A stretch of DNA of 64,000 bases from Nemertoderma westbladi (GCA_032718475.1 JAUCBJ010001327.1:6209-70208), one strand, 5' to 3'; counted from the first letter of the stretch, positions 10,594 through 58,381 are shown. Made by a program: numbers and translations. Notes: generated from the letters alone by a model not told the origin.

Positions 10594-10775
10594 AACTATA
10601 ACTTATAACTGATTATATAGATCACGTATACTGGTACAGCACAGGCCTAATTCTGTAATTCCTGAATTCTGTAGGCCATAATTAGCCATGCACTGCAGTG
10701 CGGACTGCTGGACTGCGGTCCTGAATTAGTTTAGAGGGTCCGTTGGCGCCATACCGCCCTACTACTGTCAGACTG

Positions 10776-16306: not shown

Positions 16307-17682
16307 GGCAGAAGGTAATCAACCAACGGCTAGCCATGCAGACAAGGTTGGTGGAAGGTAATCAACCAAAGGCTAGCCATGCAGACAAGGTTGGTGGAAG
16401 GTAATCAACCAAAGGCTAGCCATGCAGACAAGGTTGGTGGAAGGTAATCAACCAAAGGCTAGCCATGCAGACAAGGTTGGTGGAAGGTAATCAACCAACG
16501 GCTAGCCATGCAAACAAGGTCGGCGGAGGGTAATCAACCAACGGCTAGCCATGCAGACAAGGTTGCTGGGAGGTAATCAACCAACGGCTAGCCATGCAGA
16601 CAAGGTTGGTGGGAGGTAATCAACCAACGGCTAGCCATGCAGTCAAGGTTGGTGGAAGGTAATCAACCAAAGGCTAGCCATGCAGACAAGGTTGGTGGAA
16701 GGTAATCAACCAAAGGCTAGCCATGCAGACAAGGTCGCCGGAAGGTAATCAACCAACAGCTAGCCATGCAGACAAGGTTGGCGGAAGGTAATCAACCAAC
16801 GTCTAGCCATGCAGACAAGGTCGCCGGAAGGTAATCAACCAACAGCTAGCCATGCAAACAAGGTCGGCGGAGGGTAATCAACCAACGGCTAGCCATGCAG
16901 ACAAGGTTCCTGGAAGGTAATCAACCAACGGCTAGCCATGCAGACAAGATTGGTGGAAGGTAATCAACCAACGGCTAGCCATGCAGACAAGGTCGGTGGG
17001 AGGTAATCAACCAACGGCTAGCCATGCAGACAAGGTCAATGGAAGGTAATCAACCAACGGCTAGCCATGCAGACAAGGTCAGTGGTAGGTAATCAACCAA
17101 AGACTAGCCATGCAGACAGACAAGGTCGGCGGAAGGTAATCAACCAATGGTTAGCCATGCAGACAAGGTTGGCGGAAGGTAATCAACCAACGTCTAGCCA
17201 TGCAGACAAGGTCGGCGGAAGGTAATTAACCAACGGCTAGCCATGCAGACAAGGTTGGTGGAAGGTAATCAACCAACGGCTAGCCATGCAGACAAGGTTG
17301 GCGGAAGGTAATCAACCAACGGCTAGCCATGCAGACAAGGTCGGCGGAAGGTAATTAACCAATGGCTAGCCATGCAGACAAGGTCGCCGGAAGGTAATCA
17401 ACCAACGTCTAGCCATGCAGACAAGGTCGGTGGGAGGTAATCAACCAATGGCTAGCCATGCAAACAAGGTCGGCGGAGGATAATCAACCAATGGCTATCC
17501 ATGCAGACAAGGTCGCTGGGAGGTAATCAACCAACGGCTAGCCATGCAGACAAGGTCAGTGGAAGGTAATCAACCAATGGCTAGCCATGCAGACAAGGTC
17601 GGCAGAGGGTAATCAACCAACGGCTAGCCATGCAGACAAGGTCGGCGGAGGGTAATCAACCAACAGCTAGCCATGCAGACAA
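16307..17682. repeat. Minisatellite, 43-bp unit GGAAGGTAATCAACCAACGGCTAGCCATGCAGACAAGGT(T/C)GG(T/C), about 32 copies
   Basis: Direct tandem repeats with period 43 (AACCAA at 16321 and 16364) and scattered substitutions. Confidence 0.97.
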
Positions 17683-17684
17683 CA

Positions 17685-18820
17685 AGATGCACGGTTGCTT
17701 GATGCCAAAGGCCTTGTGCTGCATGGAAGGGTGAACGTAACGTTTAGGCTGAAAACCTTCCATCAAAGATTGGACATAAGGTTGGCGGTAGGCGGTGAGG
17801 TCGGCATCCTCCAGCGCTATCGCTTCGTCCTCACGCCGTTCTTTCTCTCTAGCCTCAGCTTGGAGATTGGAAAGGAAATCCGAGAAGGATTGTAGGTCTC
17901 CCTCGGCGATGCTCCATTTTATGTAATTTCTTTAAGGCTCGTACATCCACGCCGAATAAATCGCGCTCATATCCTCCATATGTGAAACGCGTATAACTGT
18001 GCTTAGGGAAACGTCCCGTGAATGTTTCCCTACAGTTATACGCGTTTCACGTATGGAGGATATGAGCGCAATTTATTCGGCGTGGATGAACGAGCCTGTT
18101 TGAATTGACCAGTCGGCCCCATCATGCATGGTCATAATGGTTTACTTGTTGGTTAGGGTGTGGTCAGTCGTCACAGTAATACCATAATTTAAAGTCCTGG
18201 TGACTTACGTGTGGAGTTCGGGAACCAGTTTTGCAATAATCCTCCATAGCGTTGAAACGATCTGGCAACACGGGTAAAGGTCTATCTGCAGTTAAGTACA
18301 TCATTGTGTGGTACAAACGTTTGAGTTCCGCTATTGGATCGGGGTGGATGCCTTTGGGGTAATGAGTTTGTTGGGTTTGGGCTGCCGCCACATTTAAATA
18401 CGTTTCTCTGAGGAAGGTAAGTAAATCCTGAAATATAGCCGCGTTGTCGCTAGCTTCTACATCGTTCGCTGACATGGTGTCCCGAATCGCATCTTCCTTA
18501 TCCATCTGGGCGGTATTCTCTCATTGTCTTCGTACATGATAGCGCCACATTTCCATATCTTGCCGCTCATGAACGTCTTCGGAGTATATGAGGTCGTGTG
18601 GATGTCCGGATATAACGAATGGTTTGTATGATCCATCGATTTTGGTGTATCTGTTCATGAAGGCGCGATAGTGAAGTCTTTTTGATATCTCTATGGGGGA
18701 CATTAGCGGTTCCATATACTGTTGTGGTGCTCCGGGTGTCAACAGGTCCTCCATCATCGCTCTCATACCTCGGTAATATTCCTCTGAAAGTTGTTGTCGC
18801 TGCGTATTGATATTATCCAT
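17685..18820 (-). pseudogene. Element A copy of the accessory ORF (N-terminal part, disrupted)
   Basis: ORFs 18521-18820 and 18164-18505 are in one frame separated by a TGA. They align to ORF 39286-40044 (FLRETYLNVA...YPxGIH...ELKRLY.TM.YLTA.RPLPV.PD.F..ME.YCKTG...LWYYCD). Translation of ~17690-17830 (EDEAIALEDADLTAYRQPYVQSLM...HPSMQHKAFGIK) aligns to EEKHIEMDEREEAALAQPEAQILM...DPSMVPHFGDK in ORF 40474-41217. Confidence 0.85.
17935..18097. mobile_element. Small (~160 bp) near-perfect palindromic MITE inside the element A accessory ORF
   Basis: AGGCTCGTACATCCACGCCGAATAAAT... pairs with ...ATTTATTCGGCGTGGATGAACGAGCCT over ~75 bp with a short loop. No clean TSD; it sits at a deletion junction. 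Confidence 0.75.
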
Positions 18821-19336
18821 TGAATCGTCTTAGAAGTATCCATTATTGTTATTATAAATAAACAATCGAGGCAACTAAAGCTACTGTGATACCGTCTGGG
18901 GTTTCACATGTAAGCGGATTCAATTCCCTGCACTACCCAGAAAGAAAGTAGAGAGGTCATAAACCATCTCAAAGGGGCTAGCAGGGCTAGCACGTTGGGA
19001 TAGTGGCAGCAGGGAGTGGCGAGATGGAAATTAATCGGGTAAGTCAATGATGGGAGGAGAAATCAGGTGATTGGAACGCATCTATTGGCCAGGCCGCTCA
19101 ATACAGTAGCAGTGATTAATATGTGTTAACAATATAACCATTGTACTTGTGGGTTATGATTCACTTGGTATCTGTAGAGTTGTGAGACCGGAACGGTTTT
19201 TAACCGTCGTCATTACCGTGCTATTATATTCTGACTGTGCTATTATTATGTTCTGTGATTATAACAACTGACACTAAAAACTCAGTTATTCCAACAGCCT
19301 TCGGCCTCAATATCCAGACCACAGCCTTTCAGCAGC

Positions 19337-26167: not shown

Positions 26168-27031
26168 TGTAAAAGCTTTTGCGGACATAACTAGTAATTT
26201 TTACGCAATGCGCAGAATACTCTAAAATAGCCCTAAAATTGTTCAACTACGCGTCGGAAAGAAATTAGAACCAAGATGACGAAATCTATCAGCTGATTCT
26301 TTGTGTACGTGGAGGTTTCTTTCTTCAGGCTTATTCAGCCAATCAGAGCAATCTTCCCCATTATGCCAGTAGAGACCTACCTGAGGAAACTAGTGCAATG
26401 CATTATGGTTATGGTTTTTCTGAGAATTAGATTCATCTCAGAATTCTGTACTAACTATGGTCGTTTCAGACTTTGGCCCAGGAACATCTGATGGCCTTAG
26501 TTATAAGAATGTAAATCTATTAACTGAATCACCTTGTCATTTGACTTAACTCAATTCATATCGCATTTCATATAACTGAACACATACTGACTGTTCACCG
26601 CACTGTTTTACTGCTGTTTTATATTGTGTTGATTGTTGTTTATTAATGGATGTTATATTTGGAGAATACCGATAAATAATCATAAACCCCCTCAATCTTC
26701 TTGATTACTGAGGTAAGCGGAGAAAGAGTCTACCGGTAGCAACTGCGACTTAAATTATAGTGGTTTTTGTGTGAATTAAATGCTATTTCATAATCCTACG
26801 TTATTATATAGTAGCGATCAATCGAATAATACAAAGTAGCTTATACCGCAATACTTCTTAAGGAACCCGAATCCAGTCTCCCACACCATGGGTCATACGC
26901 CGCGCACGGACTGGCTTCGGCAGATGAAACTTCAGTACACCAGGTAAGTGGTAAGGGCTAAAGTCGATTCATAATCAAAAGCACAATTAAAATTGGCAGG
27001 TTAAACTGCTAAAGGTCTGAAAGCGCGAACA
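26168..27031 (+). repeat. 5' LTR of element B (864 bp, ~260-bp internal deletion relative to the 3' LTR)
   Basis: TGTAAAAGCTTTTGCGGAC...AAAGCGCGAACA matches 43583-44702 except for a block missing at ~26801. Confidence 0.95.
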
Positions 27032-28611
27032 TTAATAGATTTCAGTTTCTTTATTGCGCAGTAGGCAATAAATAGATTTTGTCTAATGTTCTGGTAGAAC
27101 ATTAAAAGATTTAGACTCTTTATTGCGCAGTAGGCAATAAAATCAAACGTACCGGTCGGACGGTAAACTGTAGGCCTATTAACCCGAACCGGTACTTACC
27201 CAGTATTATTTCGATTGTGAAATATTGTATATTATAGGCTGTTAGGGGATTAAGGATTGATCACCCCTTATTCCTTTGTATGGTTTACTTATTTCTGTCA
27301 GTTTTATTTATCGGTAAGTGTAATATTGAGCAGAAGGTGTGTAAGCCTGCTCAGATTGTATAAATAATTTGTAGGCCGGATTGTTGTCTAACTGTTGTTA
27401 GGTCTCAGGCGATTGCAGTGTATGTAGAGTGTCTGTCCGATAAAGTGCTAGTTAGGAAGGTGGAGGCATCCAGTGCTGTAAGGTAAATCCTCCACGAAAG
27501 AATAAGTCGTACTACGTAGTTAAAACGCCTACTAACTAACCATTTCGGAGTTTGCATATACTGTAGTTTATTTAGGCTTGATAGTAGTCTGCCAGCATTT
27601 GGTCTGTGTTTTATTTAAATAGTCTGTGTGGGTAGCGTAATATTTATTATTCAGAGTTTATGCAAGTATTTGCAACCTACAACTCCCCAAGTTTATTCCT
27701 TACAGTAATTATGCTAGTTATGCATACCGTTATAGTTAAATTAACCCTGGTACTACTTCAGGGCTGCTTGGCATAGGTAAAGACTGGTGATTTTGTGCTC
27801 CGGTCACTCCAGCAGATACCGTGGTTCTTTTGGCTGTTTACGTATATTTAACTGCTAGTTATATGTTGTATAAGTACTTGTACCTAATTTAGGGTTTAGA
27901 GTACAGTGCTTTCCTGAAAGTAATTTAGTGTGTAGGCATTATATTTGTGTTGTAACGTGTTTAATAGGTCCGTTAGCTCTGGTTGGCTTCGATAATTAAC
28001 CTCTAGGTATAGGACACTCCGGGTACATAACATAGTGCTTATAGTTTAAGACTATAAGCCGTCAGATGGTGGTATTTCCTTATCTGGACAACGCAACTTA
28101 CTTAATACTACTTTATTGGTTTCAAATACCGTAATTTCCTGTCAGTTTGTAAGAACCAGATATTCTAACTCCTTGTTAGTCTGGTTCGTAAATTTCTTGT
28201 TAAATTACCCTAAAAATTGTACGTGTAACTTGTTTATTGTTTATTTAGAGATTGTGTAATCTCAACCCGTTACGTAAGTAATTTGTAGTGATAAATAACT
28301 TAGTTAAGTAGAATTATCAGTATTAGTGTCTAACAAGTAGCACTCCACTGAGAGCATCAAGCTTCTGTGTAGTGACTTCTTACACAGAAATAATAACATT
28401 TATTTCAAATATTGTCAAAACCCATTACGGGTATATATATATATATTTATAAATTAATTCAATCAGATTTATAAAATAATAGGCCTGTTATACATCAATT
28501 AGGTCTTAATATCAGTTGAACTACTGCTTAATATCAGTAATAAAGTAAAGGGAAGGAATTCCTAAAATTTGGAAAATCAGTTATTATTAAATAATTGACA
28601 TTACCGGTATT

Positions 28612-31600
28612 TGGACTTCACCCCATTAGTGACGGAGCCAAATTTATTTTGGACTCTTTAGATGCGGAGATATTAGCTGTGGAGCAGGCTAAATTTGACG
28701 AAAGCATTCTCATCGCAATGGACAAAGAAGAACAAATAAAGAAAAAGCAAATAGAAGACCGAAAGGTAGCAGCAGCGGCGGCAGCGGTGGCAGCGGCAGA
28801 AGCTGAAAGAAAAGCGGCAGTGGCAGCGGTAGCGGCAGAAGCTGAAAGAAAAGCAGCAGCGGCAGAGGCTGAAAGAAAAGTAGTAGCGGCAGAAGCTGAA
28901 AGAAAAGCGGCAGCAGCAGCGGCAGTGGTAGAAGCAGAAAGGAGGGCATCGGAAGCGACAGCCCAACTAGAGTTGGAGAACCTTCAGGCGAAACAAGATT
29001 AATTAAATAAACAAAGAGCAGCTACTCAGATGCAACTACTGAGTCGATCTACTCCCAGAAGACAGGGATTTACCTCCTCGGATGAAAGAGATACAACTGA
29101 TCCCGAGGGTAAAAGTAATAAATCTCGTTCAAACGGACGTAGAAGAGCGCCCCACCGGCATAAGTTGCCTAACTTACCCCCTGCGGTGAGAAGGGAGCTA
29201 GCTAGTGTAGACTTAAGTAATCGAGAGCCAACAGCCCAAATTATTAGAGTAGAAAGACTTCCTACTATAGTAGATTAGCCAGAAATAATTAGGCCTGTTG
29301 GTGAAGCCACTCCCTTGATAGAGACCCCTTTGCTCCAAGAACCTAACTCTAAATTCCCTTTGCACAGTACCAAACTACCTGTGCCCAGTAGACAACTGCT
29401 GGAATCCCAAACAGTCCTGGACGCCGAGTAAGACATTATAAACAAATTTGTCTCCCATCGTCCCGATGCGCCATCCAGCTACTACGTTGGCGACTCCCAC
29501 CTCCGCGGTTGAGTGGATGGACGAGGGACGATGGGGGATGGAGCAGTTGCTCGGACAGCTCAATGATAATAAACTTGAGTCTTCCAAACAAGGAATTGAA
29601 AGGGACTGTTCAATTGTTAAAGGGAACAGTAAGTTAGAGTTAGTAGGTTAGAGCTGCAAGAAGTACAGCAAAATATCGCTCTAGAGCGCGATAAATTAGT
29701 AAATATACAAATGGGTATACCACCACCCCCTGTAACAATGTGTCAGCCCGTTAGGTCTGAAGTATTTCATGCGCAAGGTGTTGATACTGATATCCCATAC
29801 AGATCTGATAATAATCCGAGAAATTTATATACCGATAATTCGATATTAAATAATACGATAGCTCAAGAAAGTTTTCACGTCAGATGGCTAGAACTGAAGC
29901 CCGTCAAGCGGTAAAAGTGGGAGAGGTCGTCAAGTTCAATGGAGATGAGATGAAATGGTTACCTTTTAATGAATATTACAAAGATAACATACAGAACTCT
30001 GTACTATCCAACGGAGAGAAACTACGATTCCTCATCAAATGCTTGGAAGGACCTTCCAAGTTAATGGCGTTAAAGTTTATTGGATATCCGGATGGATTGA
30101 GACAAGTTTGGGAAACATTAAACATCAGGTATGGTAATAGGACTAACATAGCTAGGTATCTGTATGCGAAATTAGTAGCGCCCCGAAAGTTTCTTAGCAG
30201 CGGGATTATAGAGTTTTCCGATGAGATTCAGGAGATCTGTAGACAGCTAGACTGGTTAGGTAAGTCTCAGGAATACCAGAGTTCTATGGTTGTTGGAGCC
30301 GTAGCTTCAACTTTGCCAAATGGTGGAGTAGGTACTCGCTGGGACAATCTCGCTGGGTTCTCTATTTAATGGACCAACAACATAGAGACCCTACAATGGC
30401 TGATCTCATGTCGTTCTTAAACGGAGAGGTAAGATTACAGCTCCTAAAACAGTCTAGAGAGAAGACACCGGAAAGTAAGGTAAGTGAAAAACCCGTTACT
30501 AGGAGAAAGGTAACACCAGTGTGTTATACAGATGATTGCGAAAGCCAAACGTCATATGACGAGAATAGCGGCAAGGACACCGAAAGATCTTATTATGTCA
30601 ACAAAGTTAGGAAAGATGTAAGTAAATCTAAGTCTCGAACCAGTGACAGGAGAGAACAGGTAACAACTCCCCCTACATCTCCTAAGAGAATTCATGGAAG
30701 CAAGCCCAAAGAAAGAGCTAGCGTACACAACACGACGCAGGTTAAGGTAAGTAACATCAAACCTAAGTGTGTATTGTGCGACGGGCCACATCGCTTGAGT
30801 GGGTGTGATGAATTCTTAAAGAAAACATTGAAGGATAGATGTGATGTCATGTGGGATAAACAGTTGTGCTATAACTGCCTCAGGCCAGGACATCAACGAA
30901 GAACCTGCTACTCAGACGCGAGGTGTGCTAAGTGCGGCGCGAAACATCATATCTTGCTGCACACCGAGTTTGATAGGACCCGTACGAGTCAGGTGAGTGA
31001 GCCCAAACTACATGTCCAATTCAGTGATATGAACGACACTGACCACAGTTCGGAGATGGAAGGATTCTGCACTGATGAATTTTCAGACGAAAATGAATCC
31101 TGTTATATGATCAACACAACTGTGTATCGAGCACTTACGTATGAGACCGAAACGGAGAACCCCAACTGTCTATTCCAGATCGACAGCTCTCTGGTAAAGC
31201 CCCAACATCATCTGTCGGTATCCATAGAGTTTCCCGTAGTGCAACTGAGGGTCCATGGGATAGGGAAGAGCTTAATAGTGAACGCCCTCCTTGACTCCGG
31301 CAGTACAGGCACTTTTATAGACAAAGACCTAGCCGAAGATATCTTTGCTGGTCAACCAAAGTTCCGAACCAAACTGAACCTTTCCGGAATTATGCAGGTT
31401 TGGAAATCCACAGTATCAACAGATTACTATGTGGGTTCGTTGTCCACTCCCCAAGATGAACTCAGAGAAAATAGTGTAAGGTCAGTCAAGATGGTGGCGA
31501 TAAAGAACTTTGCTACTAGCCAAGTGGAGCCTTACAACTGGGACGAAGATCATTTTACCCAGCAATACAACATACCTAGATTCAATACCGATTATCCAGG

Positions 31601-34600
31601 GGTACAGATTTTTCTCGGCCAAAATGTGCGCGAGGCGCTTGAGACATTAGAAAAACGGCCTGCTCGACCGCGACCACTCCAGATGTACGCGGGAAGAACA
31701 AGAGTAGGTTGGTACTTCACTGGACCTTCCCATAGGACTTTACTAGAAAGACTCCCGAGGGAACAAGTCCACCAGGTAAACAAGTGGGAGGAAACTATAA
31801 GTGAAGAAGAAATTCCAGCTGAGGAAACTCTATACTCCTCAGATAACGACGACATATGTAATTTATATGAAGAGGAAAATACCATTGAACTCCTCACTGA
31901 GAACCAAACTTGGTTAAAACAGGTCAACTTATGTAACCTTATCAGTCAACATAGCAAACAATTGACGTATGATGATGAATTAAATGAAGCGGTAGAGCGG
32001 TATAATAGTAAAATACGCAATGAACACGCCGTACGATTCTTTACTCAAGAAGCGGTAGAGCCTAATTCCTACGATAAAGCATTATCGGTCGAGGAAGAGA
32101 GAGCCAAGCAGATTCAGGAAACAACCACACGTTATCTGAAAGATGAAGGTCGTTATGAGATTGGTCTGCCATTCCAACGGAGAGAACCCAGCTTCGTGAA
32201 TAACCGACCTTTAGCGGAAAGAAGAATCGCACAACTTCATCGGCGTTTGACGGCTAACGATCGAGCCAAGGAAATGTATAAAACTCAATTGAAGAAGTTT
32301 ATAGACAAGGGATATGCGGAGCGAGTTCTGGAAGAAACACCCATAACGGAGAGAATGTATTATTTGACACATCATTACGTTCCCAAGCCCAGTAAACCAA
32401 ACGAAGTCCAGGTAGTGTTTGAAGGCTCCGCCCTTTATATGGGACAATCCCTAAATTCCGAACTGTTGCTGGGACCCAACTTACTTCAATCTTTGTTGGG
32501 AATATTACTACGACTGCGGCAATATTCGATCGCCTTCACTTCCGACATCGAAGGCATGTTTCTACAAGTAAAAGTGTTAGCTAGGGATCGACACAGCCTA
32601 CGATTTCTGTGCTGGCCTGAAGGAGACCTAAACCGAAAACTGGTAGAGTACTGGATGATGATCCAGGCTTTCGGGATCGTCTCGAGCCCCTCGAACGCTT
32701 GTTCGGTAGTGCGTACCACTGACGATCACAACAGAGACGCCTTATCTAACTGGTTATTGACAACATCAAACGGGATATTTACATGGACGACAATTTAAAG
32801 TCCCTCCCATCGGTGGAAGAAGCAATTGATGTTGCCAAGGGAATGGTAGAGTGCTTACAACGCGGTGGATTTCGTCTAACCAAATTCACTAGTAACTCCA
32901 GTGAGTTCCTGGAATCGATCCCAGTAGAAGACCGAGGTGTTAAAGACCTGGACCTCAGTAAGGACGATCTTCCAGAAACCAAAACGCTTGGATTAAAATG
33001 GGACACAGAGAGAGATATTCTATTCTTTTAATTAAAGCAACGAGATAATCCAGTCAGAACTAAACGGATTTGTCTAAGTATCCTGAGCACTTATTTCGAT
33101 CCGTTGGGATTCATTAGCCCAGTCATACTAGTTGCTCGGAGCTTAGTACAACAAATGTGGTTCGAAAACCACTCGTGGGATGATCCAGTCAAGAGAGAAC
33201 TGCTAAAGAAGTGGATGAAATGGAAAATTATTTACCATCTATCGAAAACTTTAAGATTTCCCGCTCATATTTCGGTCACGTTCTCCCCACGTATTCCTAT
33301 CAACTCCATGTTTTTGGAGACGCCAGCGATATGGGAATAGGTATAGTAGCCTACCTGAGGGTTGAAACTCCCGATGGAATTAAGGTTTCATTAGTCGCCT
33401 CTAAAGCCCTAATAAACAACAAACTGCGAGTACCCAGAGTGGAGTTAAAGGCGGCTTTATACGCTACTGCCATCGGCCGGAATGTAACGGAACAGATCGA
33501 CTATCCACTAGAGAAAACTGTCTATTGGACTGATGCTTTACTCGTTCTGGAGTATATAACTAATGAAGTCTGCCAATTCAGCGTCTTTGTTACCAACAGA
33601 GTAGCCATTATACTCAGTCGCTCTAATATAGATCAATGGAGACATTGCCCTGGGACGATTAATCCAGCTGACATCGTTTCCAGAGGTGCACCTCCTCAAG
33701 AATTGATAGATACTCCAGACTGGTTAGGTGGACGCGACTTCCTGAGTAAAGAAGAGGAGGAATGGCCCCCTCATCTCATCACAGCGGAGATCAGACAAGC
33801 CAAGGGAGCGGAGAAAGTCAAACCGAAAACCCGGACGAGTAAATCAAAGTTATTTAAGCCAGTGATAGATCTGTCTGTGCTACATGCCTCCGGTGACGAC
33901 GCTGAGGATCTAAACTCACCCGTGGATGATACCAGAGCTATAAATAAATCCGTTATAGAAATCAGGGAAAGAGACTGGAAATCTGAAACACCAGATGTCT
34001 CGCAAGGACTCTCTCCTCTCCTACAAAGAGCGATAGATCATTACAGCTCCTGGAATCGGCTTTGCAAGGCCATTGTGTATCTGAAAAGATGTTTCCATCA
34101 TCACTATTCCAGGACGAAGATCGCTAGTGATACCGCTCCAGTAGTATCTGAAAAGGTCCTTGCTACTAAAGATCTTCCCACTTATAGAGTGTCTGATAAA
34201 TTTCTGACTGAGAAGATCAGATACCAAGAACATGATGATACCAATAAGCAGATACTGAGACTCCTGCAATGTTACGAAGATTCTGAGTATTTCCTGTTGT
34301 TGAGAAATCCACAGATGCGCTTAAGGGATCGTTTCTCTAGCACAATGATAGGTGGGTTAATATGTGTTGGAGGGAGATTAACTAATGCGCCATTGTCCTT
34401 TGACACTAAGTTTCCCATACTCATTAGAAATCTTGAAATACAAATCAAGATGATTGTAGATGTTCACAGTAAGCTTTACCATGCTGGTAGAGAACGAGTT
34501 CCTAGCGAAATTCGAACTCGCTATTATTTCCATAAGCCCCATAGAGATCTAAACGAAGTTCTTAGGAACTGTATACCCTGTAGGAAAGCATTTAGTAGGC

Positions 34601-35676
34601 CTTTAACACAGCGAGAGGCAGAATTACCTAGGGAACGAGTAAGCTGTTATGAACCACCCTTTACTAATACTGGTGTGGATTTATTTGGCCCTATTGAAGT
34701 ATACCGTGCTAGGACTATAGTCAAGCGATGGTGCGACATCTTTGTTTGTATGACTTGTAGAGCGATCCATCTAGATATGGTAAATGATCTATCTACAAAC
34801 AGCTTCATACTGAGCTTACGCCAACAAATCGCTCGTTTTGGGACTAGCAACACTATGAGATCTGACAAAGGAACAAATTTCATTGGCGCCAATAACGAGA
34901 TCAAAGCTTACGTAAAGGATTGGAACCAAAGACAGATGGACGATCAGCTACGAGTAACAGCATCTAGCTGGACCTTCAACACCGCCGAAGCCCCTTGGTG
35001 GGGAGGAAGTTGGGAGAGACTCATACGAATTGTGAAGACCGCATTTTACTTTATAGTGCCGTGACGAGCGTATCTCACCGACGAACTTTTGCGGACGCTA
35101 ATGGAAGAAATCGCCGCCTATCTCAACGAGAGACCGCTTATGCCAGTCTCCTCTAGTCCCGACTCCCTAGGAGCGCTAACACCCGCGCATTTCCTACTAA
35201 AGAAACCTGTAGCCATGCTCCCACAATCGGAAATCACGGACGGAGATGAATACTGCCGACGAACTTGGCAACTTATGCAGTTATTATCCCGTCGTTTCGC
35301 TGACCATTTCAAAAAACATTATCTTCCTACGCTACAACTTCGAACAAAGTGGTTTGCGCAGCAAGAGAACGTCAGCGCCGGATACATGGTCCTTATCGTG
35401 GAATCAGATCTTCCCCGTAAGAGGTGGCAGACAGGTCGTATCATCGAGACTCATATATCCGATGATGGTTTAGTGCGATCGGTAGAACTCGTCGTCATGC
35501 GACGTAACTTTAAGAAACCTGGAATTGTGTTCGAAACACAACAACTTAATCGCCCGGTTGGTCGTTTATGTTTACTGGAAAGAGACCGAGAGTTGTCCGG
35601 TAACTATGGAAGGCAAGAGACTCTTCCCACGACCACCTCCCTAATCCAACAAACATCTAGGGACTCCGCAATGTAA
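28612..35676 (+). pseudogene. Element B gag-pol polyprotein, disrupted (Gag, 3 zinc knuckles, protease, RT, RNase H, integrase, DUF5641-type tail)
   Basis: KFNGDEMKWLPF; CVLCDGPHRLSGC, CYNCLRPGHQRRTC, CAKCGAKHHILLH; ALLDSGSTGTF; SDIEGMFLQV; YMDD at ~32780; LHVFGDAS, VPRVEL, YWTDA, NPADIVSRG; HAG...CIPC, VDLFGP, SDKGTNF, WERLIR; YLNERPL, LTPAHFL, YLPTLQ.R.KW. Several stops and frameshifts; the Gag start is deleted relative to element C. Confidence 0.95.
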
Positions 35677-35695
35677 CAGCGTTTGGAGTGGGTGT

Positions 35696-37592
35696 CCCAG
35701 TGTCCTGTGATGTCACCTTATGACAACTGTCCTGTGATGTCATCAGTGATGTAATAAAGGGTTTTAAACACGGCGGGACCAGTACTAATCTGTCATTAAG
35801 TGCGCTTAGCGACCGGCAATTATTAGAAGTTAATGTCCAATTAAATGGGAACATTTGGCGCAGTCTTCAAAGCATAAATACACAAATGGGTCTCTTGAAG
35901 AAAGGAAAGTCAATACCCAAGAGAAGAACAGAAGGTGATCAATGTGTGGATTCAGAAGATGGTGAACTTAATATTAAACCAGCATCGACATCAGAAGAAT
36001 TAAATGAGCTACTAAAGAATGTGGAGCTGAAGGCATATTTAATAGACGAAGGTGGAAAAAACCTAAAAGACGCTGTTAGGCGACAGTTGAAGTGTTTATT
36101 TACACGAGAAATGGCGAGCCAGACTTCATTTAGTGGAAAATCATCAAAGGGTCAAAAAATATCCTTAGTTGAAATGGGCGTAGTTTCATTACTAATGAAT
36201 GTGAATAAAAAACGTGATGGGTATACAAAGGCAAACGTTGAAACGGAAATAAAGTCCGCTATACACAGAATGAGCGACAGGCGCGTTTTTGCTGTGGATA
36301 AGGTTGATGGTGAAGTGCAAACGGGAACGTCAACAGCGACGACGTTGTCGACTGGAGTCGGCGACATGATGGGAGAGGTTCATGGTGAACAAAACCAGCA
36401 GAGGAATGGGAAAACAAATAATAAGAGAGTGAGGAGCTTATCTTCATCTAGTAGTGAGGTGTAGATGTAGAAATGGGCCGAAACTGTGAAATCTTATAAG
36501 ATATAAGATTATACAGTATTTGGTAATGGAAATATTATGTAACTATTTAGGTGCAAGAGGGTGTATAATCTTGTGTGATGCTGATGACATGGTATATAAT
36601 ACATTTAAGTGTAATTTTCTTGTATTTGTAATAATTCTTTAATGAAAAAATAAAACTTGTCTTTTTGTCTTATATGGCCCTTTTATTTATTATTTTCTTA
36701 TAAATAATCTTTCAATGGTGAGAATGGTTTACATACCATAGTATAATAATATATAATAAATACGTTAAATATTACAAATTGAAAGATATACTATTATTCA
36801 AAAAATCTGATTTATCATTAACTTTGGTTTTATAATCCTATATTCCCTTGTTCTATCTTCGTTTAAGACCCATAAGAAGAGACTCCTATAAGAGCCACTG
36901 TATAGAGAAAACGCATTGCATAGGTACTTTGACTTGGTACTTTGATTTTTCGTCCTACCAGACAAGCACCAATAATCATAGTTGTGTTACCACATATGAT
37001 TTTTATCGAGTTGTATCGTGATCAGCGACCTCGAAAACCAGTATATCTTCAGAATTAGCAAACCAAAGGCAAAATTTAACAGTTTATAATTTTGTGCACT
37101 TGTACTTTTCGTTCTGGGTCACCAGAATGGCACCAAAATTGGGTTTGCATTACCAGAAATATTTATAACTAGTTCATCGTGATCAGCGACCTCGAAAACC
37201 TGTATACGTTCAGAATTATCAAACCAAACACAAAATTGTTTAGTTTGACATTTTTTAACTTGTAGTTTTCGTCCTGGGGACCAAAATAGAACCAAAAGTT
37301 ATGGTTACCTTGCCAGATAATATTGTTAACAAGTTTTATCGTGATCAGCGACCTCGAAAACCCTTATAACCCGGGCCAGATGTTGGGAGTGGGGGGGGGG
37401 GGGGTAGACCTGACAATATTTAATGCGCATCACAGGCTTCACGCATTCCCCACGCACCACAATCGCATGCGCACAACGGACGCGTTACGCATGCGTATCG
37501 CAGCCCAATGCGGGTGACACTTTCCACATGCGATACGCATGCGTTTTTTGTGCGTGACCCGCATGCGTATCGCATGAGAATTTTTGACTGGG
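35696..37592. mobile_element. CCCAG-ended DNA transposon derivative (probably CMC/EnSpm type) nested just 3' of element B pol
   Basis: CCCAGT...ACTGGG ends with a 2-bp GT duplication. The empty site GGGTGTGTGACT is present in element C (reverse strand, ~51217-51228). The right end resembles the terminus of the 19834-20763 element. Confidence 0.85.
35886..36464 (+). CDS. Transposon-borne DUF4806-like (BEN-related) protein or exon
   Basis: Open 192-aa frame with GGKNLKDAVRRQLKCLFTREMASQTSFSGK...VETEIKSAIHRMSDR, matching my recollection of the DUF4806 pattern. It lies inside the nested element. Confidence 0.6.
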   Translation: MGLLKKGKSIPKRRTEGDQCVDSEDGELNIKPASTSEELNELLKNVELKAYLIDEGGKNLKDAVRRQLKCLFTREMASQTSFSGKSSKGQKISLVEMGVVSLLMNVNKKRDGYTKANVETEIKSAIHRMSDRRVFAVDKVDGEVQTGTSTATTLSTGVGDMMGEVHGEQNQQRNGKTNNKRVRSLSSSSSEV

Positions 37593-38097
37593 GTGTGACT
37601 ACATTATTTTATTTTTTTTATTTTTATATTTATGTATGCATTATTATGTAATTTTTATTAATATAATCGTTTTCTTTAATTTTATTTAGTAGAATAATAT
37701 TTTAACGATTATTCAGTAGATTAGTGCAATATATTCGTGTTTTATTACTTAATTACTTAGTATAATATATTTCGTTTAACGGCGAGAAATAATTCATTTT
37801 CTCTTTCCTTACTGTCCGTATCATACTATAAATACGTGACTACAGTAAGATGAAATGTCAGTACTTATTAAAGTACAATATACCGCCCCTACTATACTTA
37901 AGTATTATTGGTAAGTAGAGTATTAGGAATGTAAAGTTCAGATCCTCGTGTCTCGGCTAAACCAAGCTCTGGGTAGACCTTGGAAACGACTTGCCTCTTC
38001 TCACTGACATTGCTTCTTGCAATATTGCTCTCATACCGTATCTTAAATAATACATATAGTAGAATGATGTCCATTTAACAGTAGCGTTGAAACGCAA

Positions 38098-38490
38098 AAA
38101 TAAATCTGTTAAACCCTTTGACCATCTGAAATTCTAGTCGATTAAGATATCGCGGCACCCACCGATATACTTGAAAGACAAAATTCTAGAATCAGTGGTT
38201 AACGTCCCCAGACATGTTCTGGAATAAATCGGTGCCCATCCTAAATATTAAATATTTGATAAATATTTACAATGTTTGTTATAACAAATGTTGAAATAGA
38301 GGAAATACTAACAAATTAAATTTGAAATTTTATAAATAAATCTGTTAACCTTTGATCCTCTAAAATTCTAGTCTATTAAGATATCGTAGTACTTACCGAT
38401 ACTCTTAAAAGGCAAAATTCTGGAATTAAGGATCCTAGTCCCCAGACATGAGCTGGAATAAAATTGTGTCTATCTTAATATCAAATAATC
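38098..38490 (+). other. Duplicated ~155-bp putative structured RNA element in the pol-to-accessory-ORF spacer of element B
   Basis: Two diverged copies (~38098-38255 and ~38334-38490) with nested inverted repeats. Both are conserved in element C at ~50410-50725 (minus). Confidence 0.7.
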
Positions 38491-39285
38491 AAATTCATGG
38501 GAATAAATTTTGAATTCATATCCTCTCATGAATTTAATAAATTGTCATTTTATGCAATTTATAAACATTCCCAAAATTCCATTAATTAATAGATCACGGG
38601 AGCGGAGATTCACCCTATTAAGTATATCAGTGTGAGAGAATCTCCAGTGTATAGTCAATAGCCGATAAAATTCATAAAATCATGTATAAGGGGAATATTG
38701 ACAATTAAAGAATCACTATTAAATAGCATCCCAGATCTGTATGCATGAGAAATACCCTATTTCTACCGCTAGCTTTGCATAATGTCACCATAGTAACAAC
38801 CACGCTAGAATTAGAAGTGAGATAAAAGAACAATAGAAAGCTTGCCCCATTGAATAGCATGCGGAATAAATAGCACCTTGCTAGTATCTAGGGATACATA
38901 ATAATAATGTGACATTCTGGAAGGCATTTGACTAACAGACAAATGGCCCTAATTTGTACAAATTGTGGCAGGAATGTGGAATTTGTGTATTTATAGGTGA
39001 ATGTTACTACTAAAGTGTGTTTACAGTAGCGAGTCGCAATTGTGAAAGTTACTCTGCATCTGTAGCAAGTACCTCCAGTATATCCAAGCCCTTGGGACGG
39101 ACAGTGGAGTGACTCGTGCTGGTTATTGTTGTTGTTGTGTAGCTACTACGTTGGCGAGAGGCACAGCTACGACAGTACATCAGCGCTGAGGATCTCACGC
39201 TGTCTGGGGGCATAGAGGGGGAGGCAGCGACGACCGCTAGCCTTATTATTAGTAACTATAATATCGATAAACTCATATAACAGCT

Positions 39286-42200
39286 ATGACTGAGTTGATA
39301 GAAGGTGATCTTGGTATCAGGGAGCGATATACCCTACCACTGCAAGCGTTTGTTGATAGTTTGATAAGCGGCGACGCTAGTCAACATACGACGGAAGACG
39401 ATGGCCGTTATATCGAACCGCCAATGTCAAAGGAACAGCTCAAGCGTGAATTAGACTATCGGAAATTCACAGCTCGCTATACGCATCGTAATGGTACGTA
39501 TATGGACTTCTTAACTACTGGTCATCCTATCGATTTACACGATACTGACGATGTAGACACCAAAAGGGAAATGATTCTATTTAAATATCATGCCCAGCGG
39601 AGTAGGAATGATAAACTGAGAATTGAACATGAAAATTCTATTCGAAACCGACTCGAAAGAGAAGATGTTGAAGAACCGGATAAACATAGTGATTTCAATG
39701 AATATTTAGAATTCTTGAGAGAAACTTATCTCAATGTAGCTAGTCAACAAAATCTAGAAACTCAATATCCTCAAGGTATACATCATAACCCTATGGTAGA
39801 ACTCAAACGACTCTATTTTACTATGACGTATCTTACCGCCAATCGACCGCTACCTGTTGTCCCGGATAGCTTCGAACAGATGGAGGAATATTGTAAAACT
39901 GGAGAAAGATCACCAGCGTTTCCCTTACAAGACATGCGTCTTTGGTATTACTGCGATGAATGCCCTAGACCCAATCAACAAACGGAAAGACATAAAAATC
40001 CGCGGAGACGTTGCGCTAAACACAGTTTTACTCGCTATACTTAAGGGAGTTTTGAGCGAAACTTATTCGACGCATCACCTACGCTCGCTCGCTCAACTCA
40101 ATCCTTAAATAAACCTATGATCAGAGTTCCGGAATACTCGGTCAGACCTCCTCATTCCCTGGTGCGACCTCAGACTCTTGATCCTAATAGTATGACAGAT
40201 CCTCCTGAATTGTACTCATTGTTCAAAGATCTAGTGTTATCCGAACAATTAGTCGGTGGCACTCCGGTTGTGGGCTCTCTAGATATTCGCCCATCCTACC
40301 TAGCCAGATTGGGACGCGGACATCTAATATCTCTGTTCAACCCGTATAATCGTCCTGGTTTAACTCCGATACAACCTGTCACCGAGGTGGAGGAAAGTTT
40401 TGTATGAAATGCGCTAGTCGCTATTCGGCAGAAGATCGGAAAAGGAACTTACGATTGTTTAGACAAACGTAAATTGCAACAACAAGTCCAAGCGGTAAAA
40501 GAATTGGCTTTACCTCAGTTCGATCGGGAAATCCAGAATCTTGAGGAAGATATCGAACTTGGACGAACATACTCTCTACAAGAGTTCTTGGACGAACGCT
40601 TCCAACGACAAGCGGAGGAAAATCAGCTCGAGGAGAAGCACATCGAAATGGATGAGAGAGAGGAAGCAGCTTTAGCCCAACCGGAAGCTCAAATCCTTAT
40701 GACGGATCTCTATTCCAAAACCATCATTGATCCTTCGATGGTCCCCCATTTCGGAGACAAACTCTTCGCCACGGTACAACCCCAATCGGTTGATATCAAC
40801 TTAAGATCTAGAGATCTTATCGCTGACGCTCCTATGTTACAATGTCCACCAATCGAGGCTGCTCGTGTCGACGGTATACTCGTTGAACCTCTGGACAATC
40901 GAGCGGATCTTGACCGTCGTATGGTACACGAGGTCAATCTACGCGCTAGACCTTTACCGAACTCATTTTACGGGATCAAAGATCACCCCTATTATGTCAA
41001 TTTAACTCAATATTATATGGTGAAACCGGAAGATCCTACACACAGTTTAAAGTTTCTACCATTGATAAATCCCCTTGATCTTGTTGAACTCGAACAACTA
41101 CAGAAACATTTAGACCAATTGGTTAAAGTAAACTCATTCAGAAAACTTTATAATGTTTCAAGAATAGAAAAGGACATAATACCTCCGTATAATCTCAATG
41201 GATTTATTAAAACTTGATTAGTCCATTGGAATCTCGACGTATTATTCGAGGAAGAGAGAATACAGCGATACGGAGATGCAGATACTTATACCACGCATTA
41301 TCTGAAGTATAGCGATTTACCTAATGTAAGCGAATGCGCAACTTTATGGCATCCAGTGGGTATGACCATAGAAAACGCCACCAAAGAGTGGAACGAAACT
41401 CTTAATGTTATAGAAATGTATGGAGTTGTCACTTACGATAACGAAGGTAGCGTTCCGGTTGGAGAGCTGGGAACTACGCAAATGATACACATACGAGGAC
41501 TAGCTGGTTCTACTCATTTATTTACTCGAGCGTGTTCCGAAGTAATCGATTATTCTTTTGAGACTCTCACAGAGATACAAAAGAAACTCCGACATGGACA
41601 GTTCGAACTCGCACAGCGTTATGTTACCGATACCGAGCGCAAACCAGCCATGGGTATAGATGGATCTATGCTACCCCAGCCAGTGCTCGAGATGCTGTTT
41701 GACGAGATAATCCTTAAAATTGGCTCAGCTGTTTATGGAGATCTCCAAAATGACTTCAGAAACATGGAGAATATCCCATATCCTTTCGTAGACACCCAGC
41801 TGATTGCACCCTGGGCAGATGGCCGAGGTTTCTTCCGAACCATGTATGCCAATACATCAAGCAGAATCAATAAAGTACAAAGAACCTCTATCGGACATCT
41901 TGCCTTCCAAGAATACGGATGGAATTTCAAAGTTGGAAATCCTGTCAGTTATCAACAAATATATGGAGACCATTATTCTCGATTATATTTTGACAGACCA
42001 TTAACCGCACCTGGAGTCGTCTATAGCTTTATGAGTGTTCCACTCCGTCCCTCATTAGCTATCATCACCCTCACTAGCTTCGAGAACGCCGCACTTGCCG
42101 GTTGGCTAGCCGATGTGTGCAGTCGCACTATACGTGCTCATCCCTTAGTGCTTGGAACCAAACTCGCCAAGCTAGATGAACACAATAAATTCATCCGATT

Positions 42201-43493
42201 CGAATGCTTTAGGCGCTTTCTGACTCCGTTCCGCAACATTGATAGTCAGTTCAAGACTCAGAGACTAAGCTGCTGAGAAGTTGGACAGCGCTGGATTTGC
42301 CATTTTTAAGGACGTTTGTATACAGAACCTACATTCGTCTGTCATACAAAGACCCCGAATCCCCACTGGTTATTCTATTGTGGAAGTTCAAACAGTGGGT
42401 TCACTTGAAGAAACAGCTGCACCTGGAAGAAGAACCAATTTGCTTGGAATCCGAAGAGATTCAACCCACAGCCCCCAGGAGTAGCGACAATGATTATGTG
42501 TTGGAATGGTATCAGGGTCCACAATGTCTCACGGCATATGATTATCGGCATGCCAATTACAATTCTAGGAAACGTTGCCGATTATGTGCATCACGAGACC
42601 ACTTTACCCCGGTGGACTCCAGCGAACCCTGCTCCTACTTTAAAGAGCAACATATTATGGAGATTTATTGTGCGTATTGTTGACTCAACAATCTACACAT
42701 CTTTGCCGCCTGTCCTCAATTTATGACTCAATGTCACCATTGTCAGTTCAAAGGACATGCAAGTTTCGATTGCCCTTTCAACCGAGATCTGGAGAGCGTA
42801 GACGAAACAGTTACCCTGCATTTCATCAGAGCTTGGGAAGCTAACGCGGATCTCCATTGCGAATCACGTCACCGATACTATCCAGGACGTGCGTATGAAG
42901 GAGTCTATGCGTTTCACCCATACCTCTTTGCATCCGTCGAACAAAATTCTCGCATTCGCAGTTACGAACTGATGAAGCGTGTTGGCAAGAATATTTCAAC
43001 TAAATATGTTCATAAATATCTTAGGAATATTAATCCCAATAACCTGAATTCCTATAACTTGATTAACTTCATCCGTCAAGATCAGGAATACGGCGACTTG
43101 TTCATAAACTCGCATGCTGAATTACAAGAAATTCATAGACGACCCTATGAATATAAAGCCAGAGAACGCGAATTAGAGAGAACAATTAAACCGCGGAAAT
43201 TTCTCACTACACATGGTCAACCTACCGCTGTCGTACAAACGACCCATCAAGGACCGGTAAGAGCTGCCATCCTGAAACGAGCTCTAAAGGTTGTTCGCCC
43301 TCGTTCCACCGATGTTGATATCGATCAACCGGGTACCTCGACCGGCGGATACACCGACCGTAATCCAAAACCTTCTGATGCAATCGCATTGCACCCTTCC
43401 CCCAGGAGTTATAGCCCTCCTAGTAAAGTGGCTCACCCCAAAGAGAAAAAGACTCGTACTAGTCTCAAAAAACATCATAAACGCCGTTCATGA
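39286..43493 (+). pseudogene. Large accessory ORF in env position of element B (~1400 codons reconstructed), unknown function, three zinc-knuckle motifs
   Basis: ORFs starting 39286, 40117, 40474 and 41356 share one frame separated by single stops. After one frameshift at ~42280, ORFs 42297 and 42723 share a frame. Motifs CRLCASRDH...C, CAYC*LNNLHIFAAC and CHHCQFKGHASFDC; basic C-terminus ending ~90 bp before the 3' LTR. Confidence 0.85.
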
Positions 43494-43570
43494 AAGAAGG
43501 ACTAATAGTTTAGAGTATTTTTGTATTTTAGAAACTGTGATTTTTATATTTTAAGAACTTAAATCCCATT

Positions 43571-43582
43571 TTCTGGGAGCGG
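43571..43582 (+). promoter_or_regulatory. Polypurine tract of element B
   Basis: TTCTGGGAGCGG immediately precedes the 3' LTR TGT. The identical sequence abuts the element C 3' LTR (47998-48009, minus). Confidence 0.8.
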
Positions 43583-44702
43583 TGTAAAAGCTTTTGCGGA
43601 CATAACTAGTCATTTTTACGCAATGCGCAGAATACTCTAAAATAGCCCTAAAATTGTTAAACTACGCGTCGGAAAGAAGTTATAACCAAGATGACGAAAT
43701 CTGTCAGCTGATTCTTTGTGTACGTGTAGGTTTCTTTGTTCAGGCTTATTCAGCCAATCAGAGCAATCTTCCCCTTTATGCCAGTAGAGACCTACCTGAG
43801 GAAACTAGCGCAATGCATTATGGTTATGGCTTTTCTGAGAATTAGATAAATCTCAGAATTCTGTACTAAGTATGGTCGTTTCAGACTTTGGCCCAGGAAC
43901 ATCTGATGGCCTTAGTTATAAGAACGTAAATCTATTAACTGAATCACCTTGTCATTTGACTTAACTCAATTCATATCGCATTTCATATAACTGAACACAT
44001 ACTGACTGTTCACCGCACTGTTTTACTGCTGTTTTATATTGTGTTAATTGTTGTTTATTAATGGATGTTATATTTGGAGAATACCGATAAATAATCATAA
44101 GTAATCAATCTTCTTGATTACAGAGGTAAGCGGAGAGAGAGTCTACCGGTAGCAACTGCGACTTAAATTATAGTGGTTTTTGTGTGAATTAAATGTTATT
44201 TCATAATCCTACGTGTGTCAGTTGCAATCCTCCTTATATATGATCAAATTCAGTGACGGTCGGCAAATTAGTGTGAAGTAGTGTAAAGTAGTGTGAAGTC
44301 GTGTGAAGTCGTGTGAAGGTTAATAAAGCATCTCCTAAAGAATGCGCTATTTACGAAACTCTGTGGCCATCTAGTTGTGATTAGTATAAGTCATAACTCT
44401 GTTTTTATACTTAAAGCGCCACGTCCTAAAGGAACTGTTAATATTTCCCCGAAAGTAAATATAGTTGTCAGAGATTATATAGTAGCAATCAATCGAATAA
44501 TACAAAGTAGCTTACACCGCAATACTTCCTAAGGAACCCGAATCCAGTCTCCCACACCGTGGGTCATACGCAGCGCACCGACTGGATTCGGCAGATGTAA
44601 CTTCAGTACACCAGGTAATTGGTAAGGGCTAAAGTCGATTCATAATCAAAAGGACAATTAAAATTGGCAGGTTAAACTGCTAAAGGTCTGAAAGTGCGAA
44701 CA
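43583..44702 (+). repeat. 3' LTR of element B (1120 bp)
   Basis: TGTAAAAGCTTTTGCG...AAAGTGCGAACA followed by TSD GGTAG. Contains a CCAAT box (~43754), TATA-like TTATATA (~44234) and AATAAA (~44322). Confidence 0.95.
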
Positions 44703-45669
44703 GGTAGGACACTATGTTGGACTTAGTGCATGGTAAGCGCACAGTTCACTTGTGCTGCATACATAGTGTCAATAGATATAAGTTACCAGTTGGGGAATAA
44801 TATTGCAGTACTATGGATGCACACACTCGCACTAAAATGAACCGAATCTATTACAGACAGGGCGCAGTCAGCACCAACCGTGTGGAAATCGAGTTGGTTT
44901 GATCTCTGGTCTTGTATATTCATCAACAATAGTAAAGCAATAATAGTAAATAATGATAATGCAATGATATATGCAACAAGATGTTAAAATGCATGCAGCA
45001 AGCCACAATGCATGCAGGCAAGGCGAAATATTACGAGTCTGGTAGTTACAATGACTCACAACAGGGTAATATGTTGTTAGGTTACGCCCGAGAGAAATGG
45101 GATGAACATCGACTATATAAACAAGTAATACTGCAAAAATAGAACAGCCAATAGGACGCAAGAATACCTGCACCGGTAGTTACCAATGAGAGTTCAGCAC
45201 TATACCACAACTGCTGCTAGGCAACATATAAACAAGGTTCACGGTGGTATACAACACGAGTTAGGCATAAATGTTATAAGCACAGAAATTGAATGATTCT
45301 CTGATAATAAATATAAGATTTCGATATGCAGTTAGCCCGTGCAGCAAAAAGACAACTTCAAACTATAATTTTTTCTAGACAAATTCAAACTATAATTATT
45401 ATGTTGTAATCATCTAATGAATTGTAAAAGCTGTTGTGATTATAGAAGATAGAGAGCAGTTAGCGAAATGATTATTTTGTTCTATCGGATTGAGTAGTCA
45501 GAGAGGAGTCGAGGTGTTAATTGATTAATAATAATATAATAACAGCAGTTGCCATGAATTCAATACAATCGCGCACAAGAAGTGATAAGACAAATTAGTT
45601 CTTATTTTTGTAACTAGAAAGCCAGCAAGCTGGCTGGAAGGAGCCCGGGGGAAAAATCCTAGCCAAGAC

Positions 45670-47997: not shown

Positions 47998-48075
47998 CCG
48001 CTCCCAGAAAATGGGATTTAAGTCTATAAAATATAACAAATCACAGTTTCTAAAATATAAAGATACTCTAAACAG

Positions 48076-49595
48076 TTAGTCTTTCTTACGCAGACGGCGT
48101 TTACGCAGTTTTTTGAGGCTAGCAAGAGTCCTTTTCTCTTTGGGGCGAGCCACTTTACTAGGAGGGCTATAAATCCTGGGTGAAGGGTGCAATATGATTG
48201 CATCAGAAGGTGTAGGATTATGGTCGGGGTATCCGCCGTTTCGATATGCTTCTCCTCGAGCTGATTTTCCTCCGCTCGTAGCTGGATACGTCCATCCAAA
48301 ACTCTCGCAGAGAATGGGGTTGTCTAAGTTCGATATCTTCTTAGAGATTCTGGATTTCACAATCGAACTGAGATAAAGACAATTCGTTTATCGCTTGGAC
48401 TTGCTGTTACAACTTACGTTTATCTGAACAAACGCAGGTTTCCTTTCTGATCTTTGTAGAATAGCGTTTAACTCGTTTGGTACAACGCTCTCCGCCACTT
48501 TGGTGACAGGTTATATCGTGTTAAGCCGGGACGATGGTAAGGGTTAAACGGCGATATTAAATGTCCGCGTCCCAATCCGGCTAGGTAGAATGGGCTAATA
48601 TCTAGGAAGCCCACAACTGGGGTGCCACCGATTAATTGTTCAGGTAACACTAGATCTTTGAGCAGTGAGTACAGCTCGGGAGGATCCGTCATACTAATAG
48701 GATCAAGAGTCTGAAGTCTCACTAGGGAATGAGGAGTTCTGATCGAGTATTCCGAAACTCTGATCATAGGTTTATTTAAGGATCGTCTGAGTCGAACGAG
48801 CGTAGGGGATACATCGAACAAGTTTCGCTCGAAACTCCCGTAAGTATAGCGAGTAAAACCGTGTTTAAAGCAACGTCTCCGCGGATGTTTATGTCTTTCC
48901 GTTTGTTGGTTGGGTCTTAGGCATTCATCGCAATAATACCAAAAATGCACGTCTTGTAGGGGAAACGCGAGTGATCTTTCTCCAGCTTACAATATTCCTC
49001 CATCCGTTCGAAGCTATCCGGTACAACAGGTAGCGATCGATCGGCGGTAAGATACATCATAGTGGAATAGAGCCGTTTGAGTCCTACCATGCGGTCATGA
49101 TGTATACCTTGAGGATATCGAGTTTCTAGATTCTGTTGACTGGTAATATCGAGATAGGTTTCTCTCAAGAATTCCAGGTATTTGCTGAAGTCGCTGCGTT
49201 TATCCGGCTCTTCAACATCTGCACTTTCGAGTCGGTTTCGAATAGAATTTTCGTGTTCGAGTCTCAGTTTATCGTTCCGCTTCCGCTGGGTATGATATTT
49301 AAATAGACCATTTCCCTTTGGTGTCTATATCGTTCGTATCGTGTAGGTCGATAGGATGACCAGTAGTTAAGAAGTTCATATATATACCATTACGATGCGT
49401 ATAGCGAGCGGTGAATTTTCTACAGTCCAACCCACGCGCAAGTTGCTCCCGGGACATTGGCGGTTAGATATAACGACCATCGTCCTCCGTCGTAGTTAGA
49501 CCAGCGTCGCCGCGTATCAAGCTATCAACAAACGCCTGTAAAGGTAGAGTATATCGCTCCCTGATACCAAGATCATCATCTATCAACTCAATCAT
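48076..49595 (-). pseudogene. Element C copy of the accessory ORF, frameshifted, with ~2.7-kb central deletion
   Basis: ORFs 48917-49168, 48468-48950 and 48076-48360 match the N-terminus and extreme C-terminus of 39286-43493. The junction EEKHIE|...GGYxD is at ~48238. Confidence 0.9.
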
Positions 49596-58110: not shown

Positions 58111-58381
58111 CTGAGCGGGCTTACACGCCTTCTGCTCAATACTGGCCTACAAATAAATAAAACTGACAGAAATAAGCCTAAGTAAAATCCCAATAAAAAC
58201 CAGGCGTCCCCGATTAATTATTAAGACCTACCGGCATATAATAATCAAAATCGAATAATACTGCTGTACCTGTACTGCTGTAGGTACCGGTCCGGGTGGT
58301 TAGGTAGTCAGGCCTACTGGGTACCGGTTGCCGGTACTTCAGCTTTATTGCCTACTGCAATACAGAAGCAATATCCGTTAT

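Follow-up and report, generated by a model that had tools for sequence, protein, structure and literature searches.

In BEL/Pao retrotransposons (Belpaoviridae), the slot between pol and the 3' long terminal repeat (LTR) can hold an envelope gene (env), of the F type in Roo, the gB/Chuviridae type in mosquito elements and the phlebovirus type in Cer13 and Atlas. The available passages of three papers (PMC3118150, PMC13524379 and PMC9094657) describe extra genes of this group as env-type only. Another kind of third open reading frame (ORF3), coding for a DEDDy exonuclease, was found in the Juno, Vesta and Athena/Terminon elements of bdelloid rotifers (Rodriguez, Kenefick and Arkhipova 2017, PMC5408684); in its available text this paper states that such ORF3s had not previously been reported in retrotransposons, and excerpts of PMC5718144 and PMC6338049 say likewise. 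Here, an extra gene of about 1,400 codons (39286..43493, plus strand) is described in the env slot of a BEL/Pao element, element B (26168-44702, plus strand). It is one of three BEL/Pao elements (A, B and C) in a 64,000-nucleotide stretch of the Nemertoderma westbladi assembly (GCA_032718475.1, JAUCBJ010001327.1:6209-70208), the whole of which is called the window below. The C-terminal half of the predicted product very probably consists of an exonuclease fold and zinc knuckles, and the N-terminal third of the gene is held under purifying selection. Our preferred reading, with a probability of roughly 0.45, is that the gene codes for an RNA-binding, RNA-trimming enzyme that would aid the spread of the element by degrading host silencing RNAs.

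Like the bdelloid DEDDy ORF3s, the gene of B is a non-env third ORF past pol whose product has no membrane features. As far as the two can be likened by description, acidic residues are kept in the bdelloid proteins and, as candidates, in B, with one D-to-E change each. Unlike them, it resides in a BEL/Pao host and codes for about 1,400 amino acids (aa), with a long N-terminal half and three C-terminal knuckles; the D-to-E change of B appears at ExoIII and does not give DEED, and purifying selection between subfamilies is shown here, in the N-terminal third. With regard to cellular DEDDy enzymes (RNase D, Rrp6, WRN-exo, EXD2 and MUT-7/Nibbler), the ExoII segment with its P..DTQ motif aligns to RNase D, whereas B scores far below the family cut-offs and no HRDC domain was found in the extra protein. 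The BEL/Pao env ORFs occupy the same slot, but the B protein lacks a signal peptide, a transmembrane anchor and any glycoprotein match. An exonuclease domain in a nematode Cer element is said to have been described by Malik et al. in 2000.

No exonuclease ORF of a BEL/Pao element was encountered in the literature searched, in which few subscription papers are covered, nor in the available passages of PMC7998251, PMC2774666, PMC11662393 and PMC11599104. In this literature, exonuclease-type third ORFs were seen for the gypsy-like bdelloid elements only. A selected nuclease-knuckle gene in the env slot would mean that third ORFs of the enzyme type occur in Belpaoviridae as well as in gypsy-like elements, and it suggests that LTR elements have repeatedly profited from 3' RNA trimming.

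Extent of the extra gene and its reading frames

Six sense ORF pieces were found over 39271-43493, of which four share a frame (39271-42276) and the other two lie in a second one (42246-43493). A reading made beforehand from the sequence only had proposed one protein of about 1,400 aa, reconstructed from some 4.2 kb of sense coding sequence in six pieces with in-frame stops and one frameshift, and ORF reading recovered it. From the ATG at 39286, internal stops lie at 40042, 40405, 41215 and 42681, and the frame switch falls in the overlap of the two frames (42246..42276, plus strand). With stops read as X, the first frame yields 996 aa (three stops) and the second 415 aa (one stop), making about 1,400 codons once the overlap is subtracted. 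The open sense frames are far beyond chance, since the four frames never used contain 58-100 stops per 1,402 codons. The gene ends in a basic, Pro-rich and weakly constrained tail (43344..43493, plus strand).

The C codons aligned to the B stops at 40042 and 40405 are sense codons, in line with the earlier remark that 40042 is not a stop in C. In the same way, the stop at 41215 is absent from the majority of the contigs of the family, in two runs that belong to separate studies. B and most of these contigs differ by small gaps at 42064-42076. A frameshift at 42064-42078 was considered and rejected, because the first frame can be followed to 42243 by codon bias and stops.

Both frames would likely form one polypeptide, because P0003, the protein matched by B that is described below, holds exonuclease and knuckles in one chain. 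Two genes or a programmed frameshift, with an exonuclease protein of 996 aa besides a knuckle protein that is separate or extended, are quite improbable. The absence of a majority gap in the overlap among the family contigs of two runs weighs against a single chain and favours such a split, as does the codon bias that holds the first frame up to 42243. It is opposed, besides by P0003, by the lack of a slippery heptamer at the overlap, and by two contigs that end their alignment at 42251, with none of the pieces listed bridging the overlap; the number of breaks is also similar in the pol of B.

Judged by its sequence features, the product of the extra gene is not an envelope protein, because it has neither signal peptide nor transmembrane segment. 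Membrane features were assessed by simple hydropathy, with a best 19-aa Kyte-Doolittle window of 1.44, and the N-terminus is acidic. The first 996 aa are free of furin sites, and N-glycosylation motifs are about as frequent as chance would give (7 vs 5.2 expected). In addition, no glycoprotein, env or fusogen family was matched in Pfam, PHROGs, PDB or a search of 1,835,955,588 proteins. The sequence-only reading had noted no signal peptide or transmembrane anchor, with which hydropathy agrees, and had allowed for a match to a known env, of which Pfam, PHROGs and PDB gave none. It had also seen no Cys-rich ectodomain, to which must be added that a Cys cluster does exist, in the form of three CCHC-type knuckles (42576-42773). 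A highly diverged env or other membrane protein, or an unrelated fold whose RNase D-like segment arose by chance, would be suggested by the env position, by the F-, gB- or phlebovirus-type fusogens known as BEL/Pao extra ORFs and by the weakness of the individual scores. Given the missing membrane features, the chance-level glycosylation motifs and two independent matches to P0003, such an explanation is highly improbable.

Similarity to exonucleases and zinc-knuckle proteins

The predicted DEDDy/RNase D-like 3'-5' exonuclease domain extends over about aa 700-955 (41390..42150, plus strand), and its ExoII segment is significant. When the 996-aa part was compared by HMMER with 1,835,955,588 representatives, one match was obtained, P0003 (E 1e-4, aa 778-905). 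This protein of 648 aa comes from an ENA record of a 9,449-bp contig and forms a single-member cluster. In the exonuclease segment, 36/112 residues (32%) are identical between B and P0003, which carries a weak Pfam DNA_pol_A_exo1 match (E 0.2) plus a zf-CCHC match. Both proteins have the same order, exonuclease then three knuckles, and P0003 differs from B in lacking the N-terminal ~690 aa.

In B, the three zinc-knuckle-like motifs (CCHC-type) are located in the second frame (42576..42773, plus strand; Pfam zf-CCHC_3, E 0.0016). The third is a canonical CX2CX4HX4C motif, the second contains an extra spacer residue and a stop in B, and the first is degenerate. The second-frame protein, which was outside the HMMER query that found P0003, matches the knuckle cluster of P0003 with a pairwise E of 5e-6 (0/1000 shuffles). 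Compared with PDB, the P0003 knuckles gave retroviral nucleocapsid as best match (E 1e-4) and, faintly, Air2 (E 0.064).

Independently of P0003, a resemblance of the domain to RNase D emerged from other searches. The piece 41218-42273 had only two matches in NCBIfam, both to RNase D models (E 0.012 and 0.047), and a PHROG exonuclease match covered the ExoI region (E 0.046). A custom profile was built from nine bacterial RNase D/PolA exonuclease domains, seven of the 25 plasmid matches listed, picked for spread, and two E. coli genes. Among 853 sequences, this profile placed P0003 first, followed by the two window tiles over the domain at 7.7 and 7.3 bits, whereas the next sequence had 1.2. In a set of 1,001 sequences that included shuffles, the real piece ranked second. 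With hhalign, the alignment of P0003 to the profile takes in ExoI, ExoII and also the DTQ motif, at 127 columns, an E of 1.3e-4 and a probability of 54%; the alignment of B with P0003 gave probabilities of 43% and 59%.

The candidate residues of B (plus strand) are D718/E720 for ExoI (41437-41445), D819 for ExoII (41740) and E933 for ExoIII (42082), those of ExoI and ExoIII being placed by position only. The ExoII segment contains the acidic residue and the DTQ motif. At ExoIII, P0003 has Y-x3-E, and B shares the E in place of D; an earlier version of ExoIII without acidic residue was dropped after alignment with P0003. As four acidic residues occupy the ExoI-III positions, the exonuclease is somewhat more probably active in catalysis than not. 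A dead exonuclease scaffold that binds RNA, like EXD1, Maelstrom and Egalitarian, and that together with the knuckles and the long N-terminal region would carry element RNA to the germ line or to granules, is improbable. The replacement of D by E at ExoIII in both B and P0003 and the diverged ExoI region would be consistent with it, and inactive DEDD derivatives in PIWI-interacting RNA biology are cited in the available passages of PMC5408684; acidic residues at all four positions in two proteins about 25% identical argue against it.

Several observations weigh against the exonuclease assignment. The direct matches of B to DEDDy proteins are all weak and come from one segment of 45-60 aa around ExoII, and hhalign of B alone gave a probability of 9%. 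Nothing was found by Pfam in the domain even at E 10, and PDB sequence searches of the exonuclease piece returned unrelated chance matches only. Taken by itself, the ExoI alignment between B and P0003 lacks significance, with 897 of 2000 shuffles doing as well, and MAFFT places the ExoI part differently. Moreover, an insert of ~30 aa is needed in B between ExoI and ExoII, and the ExoIII tyrosine position of B falls in a patch that differs from the family. In parallel, two AlphaFold models had a mean predicted local distance difference test score (pLDDT) of 32.9 and 29.0, too low for a reading of the fold. A tblastn search of phages and plasmids with the exonuclease piece was uninformative (best E 0.1), and scans of viral and metagenome contigs gave no match for P0003.

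The N-terminal region, its copies and selection on it

The N-terminal region (aa 1 to about 690; 39286..41350, plus strand) has no family match and contains an acidic, likely helical stretch near aa 375-460. It is a conserved domain for which no credible relative was found, including among 1.84 billion cluster representatives (1,835,955,588). Word-index protein searches were empty over 7,997 near-length, 662 longer (first 252 aa) and 4,035 shorter candidates. PDB sequence searches gave 0 matches for both read-through proteins and for an A/B/C profile, and the N-terminal piece had no match in scans of viral and metagenome contigs. The proposal of an unrecognised protein family therefore stands for these ~690 aa and not for the C-terminal half, with its DEDDy/RNase D-like segment and knuckles. 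A copy of the N-terminal region of gag was also considered for this part of the protein and rejected, one frame being compared.

The gene was said to occupy the same position in C and in A, and both elements were found to be deletion derivatives without exonuclease and knuckles. In element C (46803-59571, minus strand), the copy is internally deleted and frameshifted (48094..49595, minus strand): codons 1-454, in which six 1-nt gaps occur, and the final 48 codons are retained on either side of a 2.7-kb deletion, and the gene is not whole in C. C also lacks most of the reverse transcriptase (RT), RNase H and integrase. Its LTRs (46803-47997 and 58382-59571) are identical at 1186/1190 positions (99.7%), a target duplication is present, and C is a young non-autonomous derivative. 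Contigs from further runs show these deletion joints as well, so that C represents a subfamily.

The divergent element A holds an N-terminal remnant (17659..18826, minus strand) that covers about aa 11-276 and, in a further piece, aligns with aa 425-499; the score of this piece was reached by 0/500 shuffles. The blocks FLRETYLNVA, ELKRLY, YLTA.RPLPV.PD.F and LWYYCD, reported earlier as surviving in A, are present in both A and B. The gene piece runs into a 43-bp tandem array, A has lost its integrase and yielded no LTR pair, so that the position of the gene in this element is checkable only in part. Conservation across divergent subfamilies, as put forward before, is thus retained for the N-terminal third; the rest is lost from A and C. 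The array that truncates the accessory gene of A comprises 32 copies (16311-17682).

The ratio of nonsynonymous to synonymous substitution rates (dN/dS) was calculated by Nei-Gojobori with 300 bootstraps. Between B and C, the extra gene has a dN/dS of 0.28 (0.20-0.41) over 448 codons in frame, and of 0.93 and 0.98 when read off frame. This contrast with values of about 1 agrees with the view of a long-maintained, selected accessory gene. For comparison, gag gave 0.13, gag-protease 0.15 and a pol piece 0.30 in the same pair. In each of the three frames, the spacer at 38564-39285 lies within 0.76-1.08; the final 48 codons of the gene gave 1.16, with a wide interval. Between A and B, 121/256 residues of the extra gene are identical (47%) and synonymous sites are saturated. 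As this identity is near that of gag (53%), RT (54%) and protease (48%), the extra gene diverged in step with the core genes. The selection figure is confined to the N-terminal third because A and C are devoid of exonuclease and knuckles, a limit that counts against the enzymatic reading.

Possible role and setting of the gene

In four public sequencing runs, short contigs matching element B at >=85% numbered 73,515, 48,787, 24,834 and 717, where contig depth on B is not a copy number; they are mostly 90-99% identical and 30/30 bins of B are covered in every run. These data suggest that B belongs to a family with many copies, in which the extra gene is regularly present. The window stretch itself is present in 3 of the 6 public runs listed.

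In the preferred reading, RNA bound by the knuckles would be trimmed or degraded by the exonuclease, starting at its 3' end. An AT-rich spacer of 1.7 kb with no coding signal separates pol from the extra gene (37586..39285, plus strand), behind which the gene would probably be expressed apart from gag-pol; in the available passages of PMC5408684, ORF3s are described as spliced units of their own in most cases. Host silencing RNAs would then be degraded and the element could spread. Silencing RNA as the target, and not the RNA ends of the element itself, is put forward tentatively, at somewhat less than even odds. Counter-silencing is favoured because of the separate expression, the family size and an analogy with viral exonucleases (ExoN), the arenavirus ExoN being implicated in immune suppression in the accessible part of PMC7968707. 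We infer that the exonuclease-knuckle part is not needed in cis, because C-type copies without it transposed recently.

The exonuclease could serve replication instead, by trimming the 3' ends of the element's RNA, primer or cDNA in the particle, with the knuckles as a second nucleocapsid. This is rather unlikely. BEL/Pao elements mostly replicate with no gene of this kind, the extra gene is separate from gag-pol, and an 11-base LTR pairing of B that might bear on priming is not found in C (8 bases at best, 55/300 shuffles). On the other side, the P0003 knuckles resemble nucleocapsid, and priming may be unusual in B, which has this pairing (reached in 1/300 shuffles) and is without a TGG-type primer site after its 5' LTR. 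Processing of the element's own ends was proposed for the bdelloid DEDDy ORF3 in the available passages of PMC5408684, and those of PMC3118150 describe BEL/Pao with gag-pol only. The gene offers a test case for the rotifer question, whether such enzymes act against small-RNA silencing or process RNA of the element itself. The most complete version of the silencing-suppressor reading is unlikely to hold in all its parts: an active DEDDy exonuclease, Air2/nucleocapsid-like knuckles and a new N-terminal family would together make up a trans-acting suppressor of small-RNA silencing, kept over the whole divergence of gag and pol and lying behind the expansion of the family, the first such nuclease in Belpaoviridae.

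Element B is delimited by a 5' LTR of the TGT...ACA form (26168..27031, plus strand) and a 3' LTR with an insert of ~260 bp (43583..44702, plus strand), which agree at 828/862 aligned bases, and by a 5-bp target duplication, identical at 26163-26167 and 44703-44707. The first 11 bases past the 5' LTR (27032-27042) are exactly complementary to ~26513-26523, 345 bases into the LTR. The broken gag-pol (28600..35676, start approximate, plus strand) passes the Pfam cut-off for DUF1759, Peptidase_A17, Integrase_H2C2 and DUF5641. It has Pao-type domains in the order protease, RT, RNase H and integrase, with a YMDD motif, and is damaged by several frame changes and one stop. The N-terminal portion of gag has Ala/Glu-rich repeats, at 28792-28919 in B and at 54859-55049 in C.

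Between pol and the spacer, B carries an insertion that C lacks (35696..37585, unstranded), probably a piece of another repeat. In C, the end of pol runs straight into the spacer, and contigs depart from the element at 35723. The insertion contains a 246-codon ORF (35724-36464), which was rejected as part of the element or of the accessory gene, and which shows a faint DUF4806 (BEN-like) match (E 0.11). Without the insertion, element B measures about 16.6 kb. One large BEL/Pao survey, with 7,861 elements, merged calls under a 15-kb bound (PMC3118150, available passages); the element lies beyond this bound, which may be one reason why such elements were overlooked.

Other features of the window include a 32-bp satellite (1605-10593; 281 copies, 99% matches) and two short inverted-repeat elements (10772-11933 and 45670-46569) with arms 92% identical. 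A piece of a helix-turn-helix-like ORF lies at 45968-46303. An intronless kinase-like ORF of 332 codons (61871-62869; Pkinase, E 5.5e-34) is possibly a retrocopy and looks like a STRAD pseudokinase. Finally, a fragment of another reverse transcriptase was detected at 589-1170 on the minus strand (RVT_1, E 1.3e-13).

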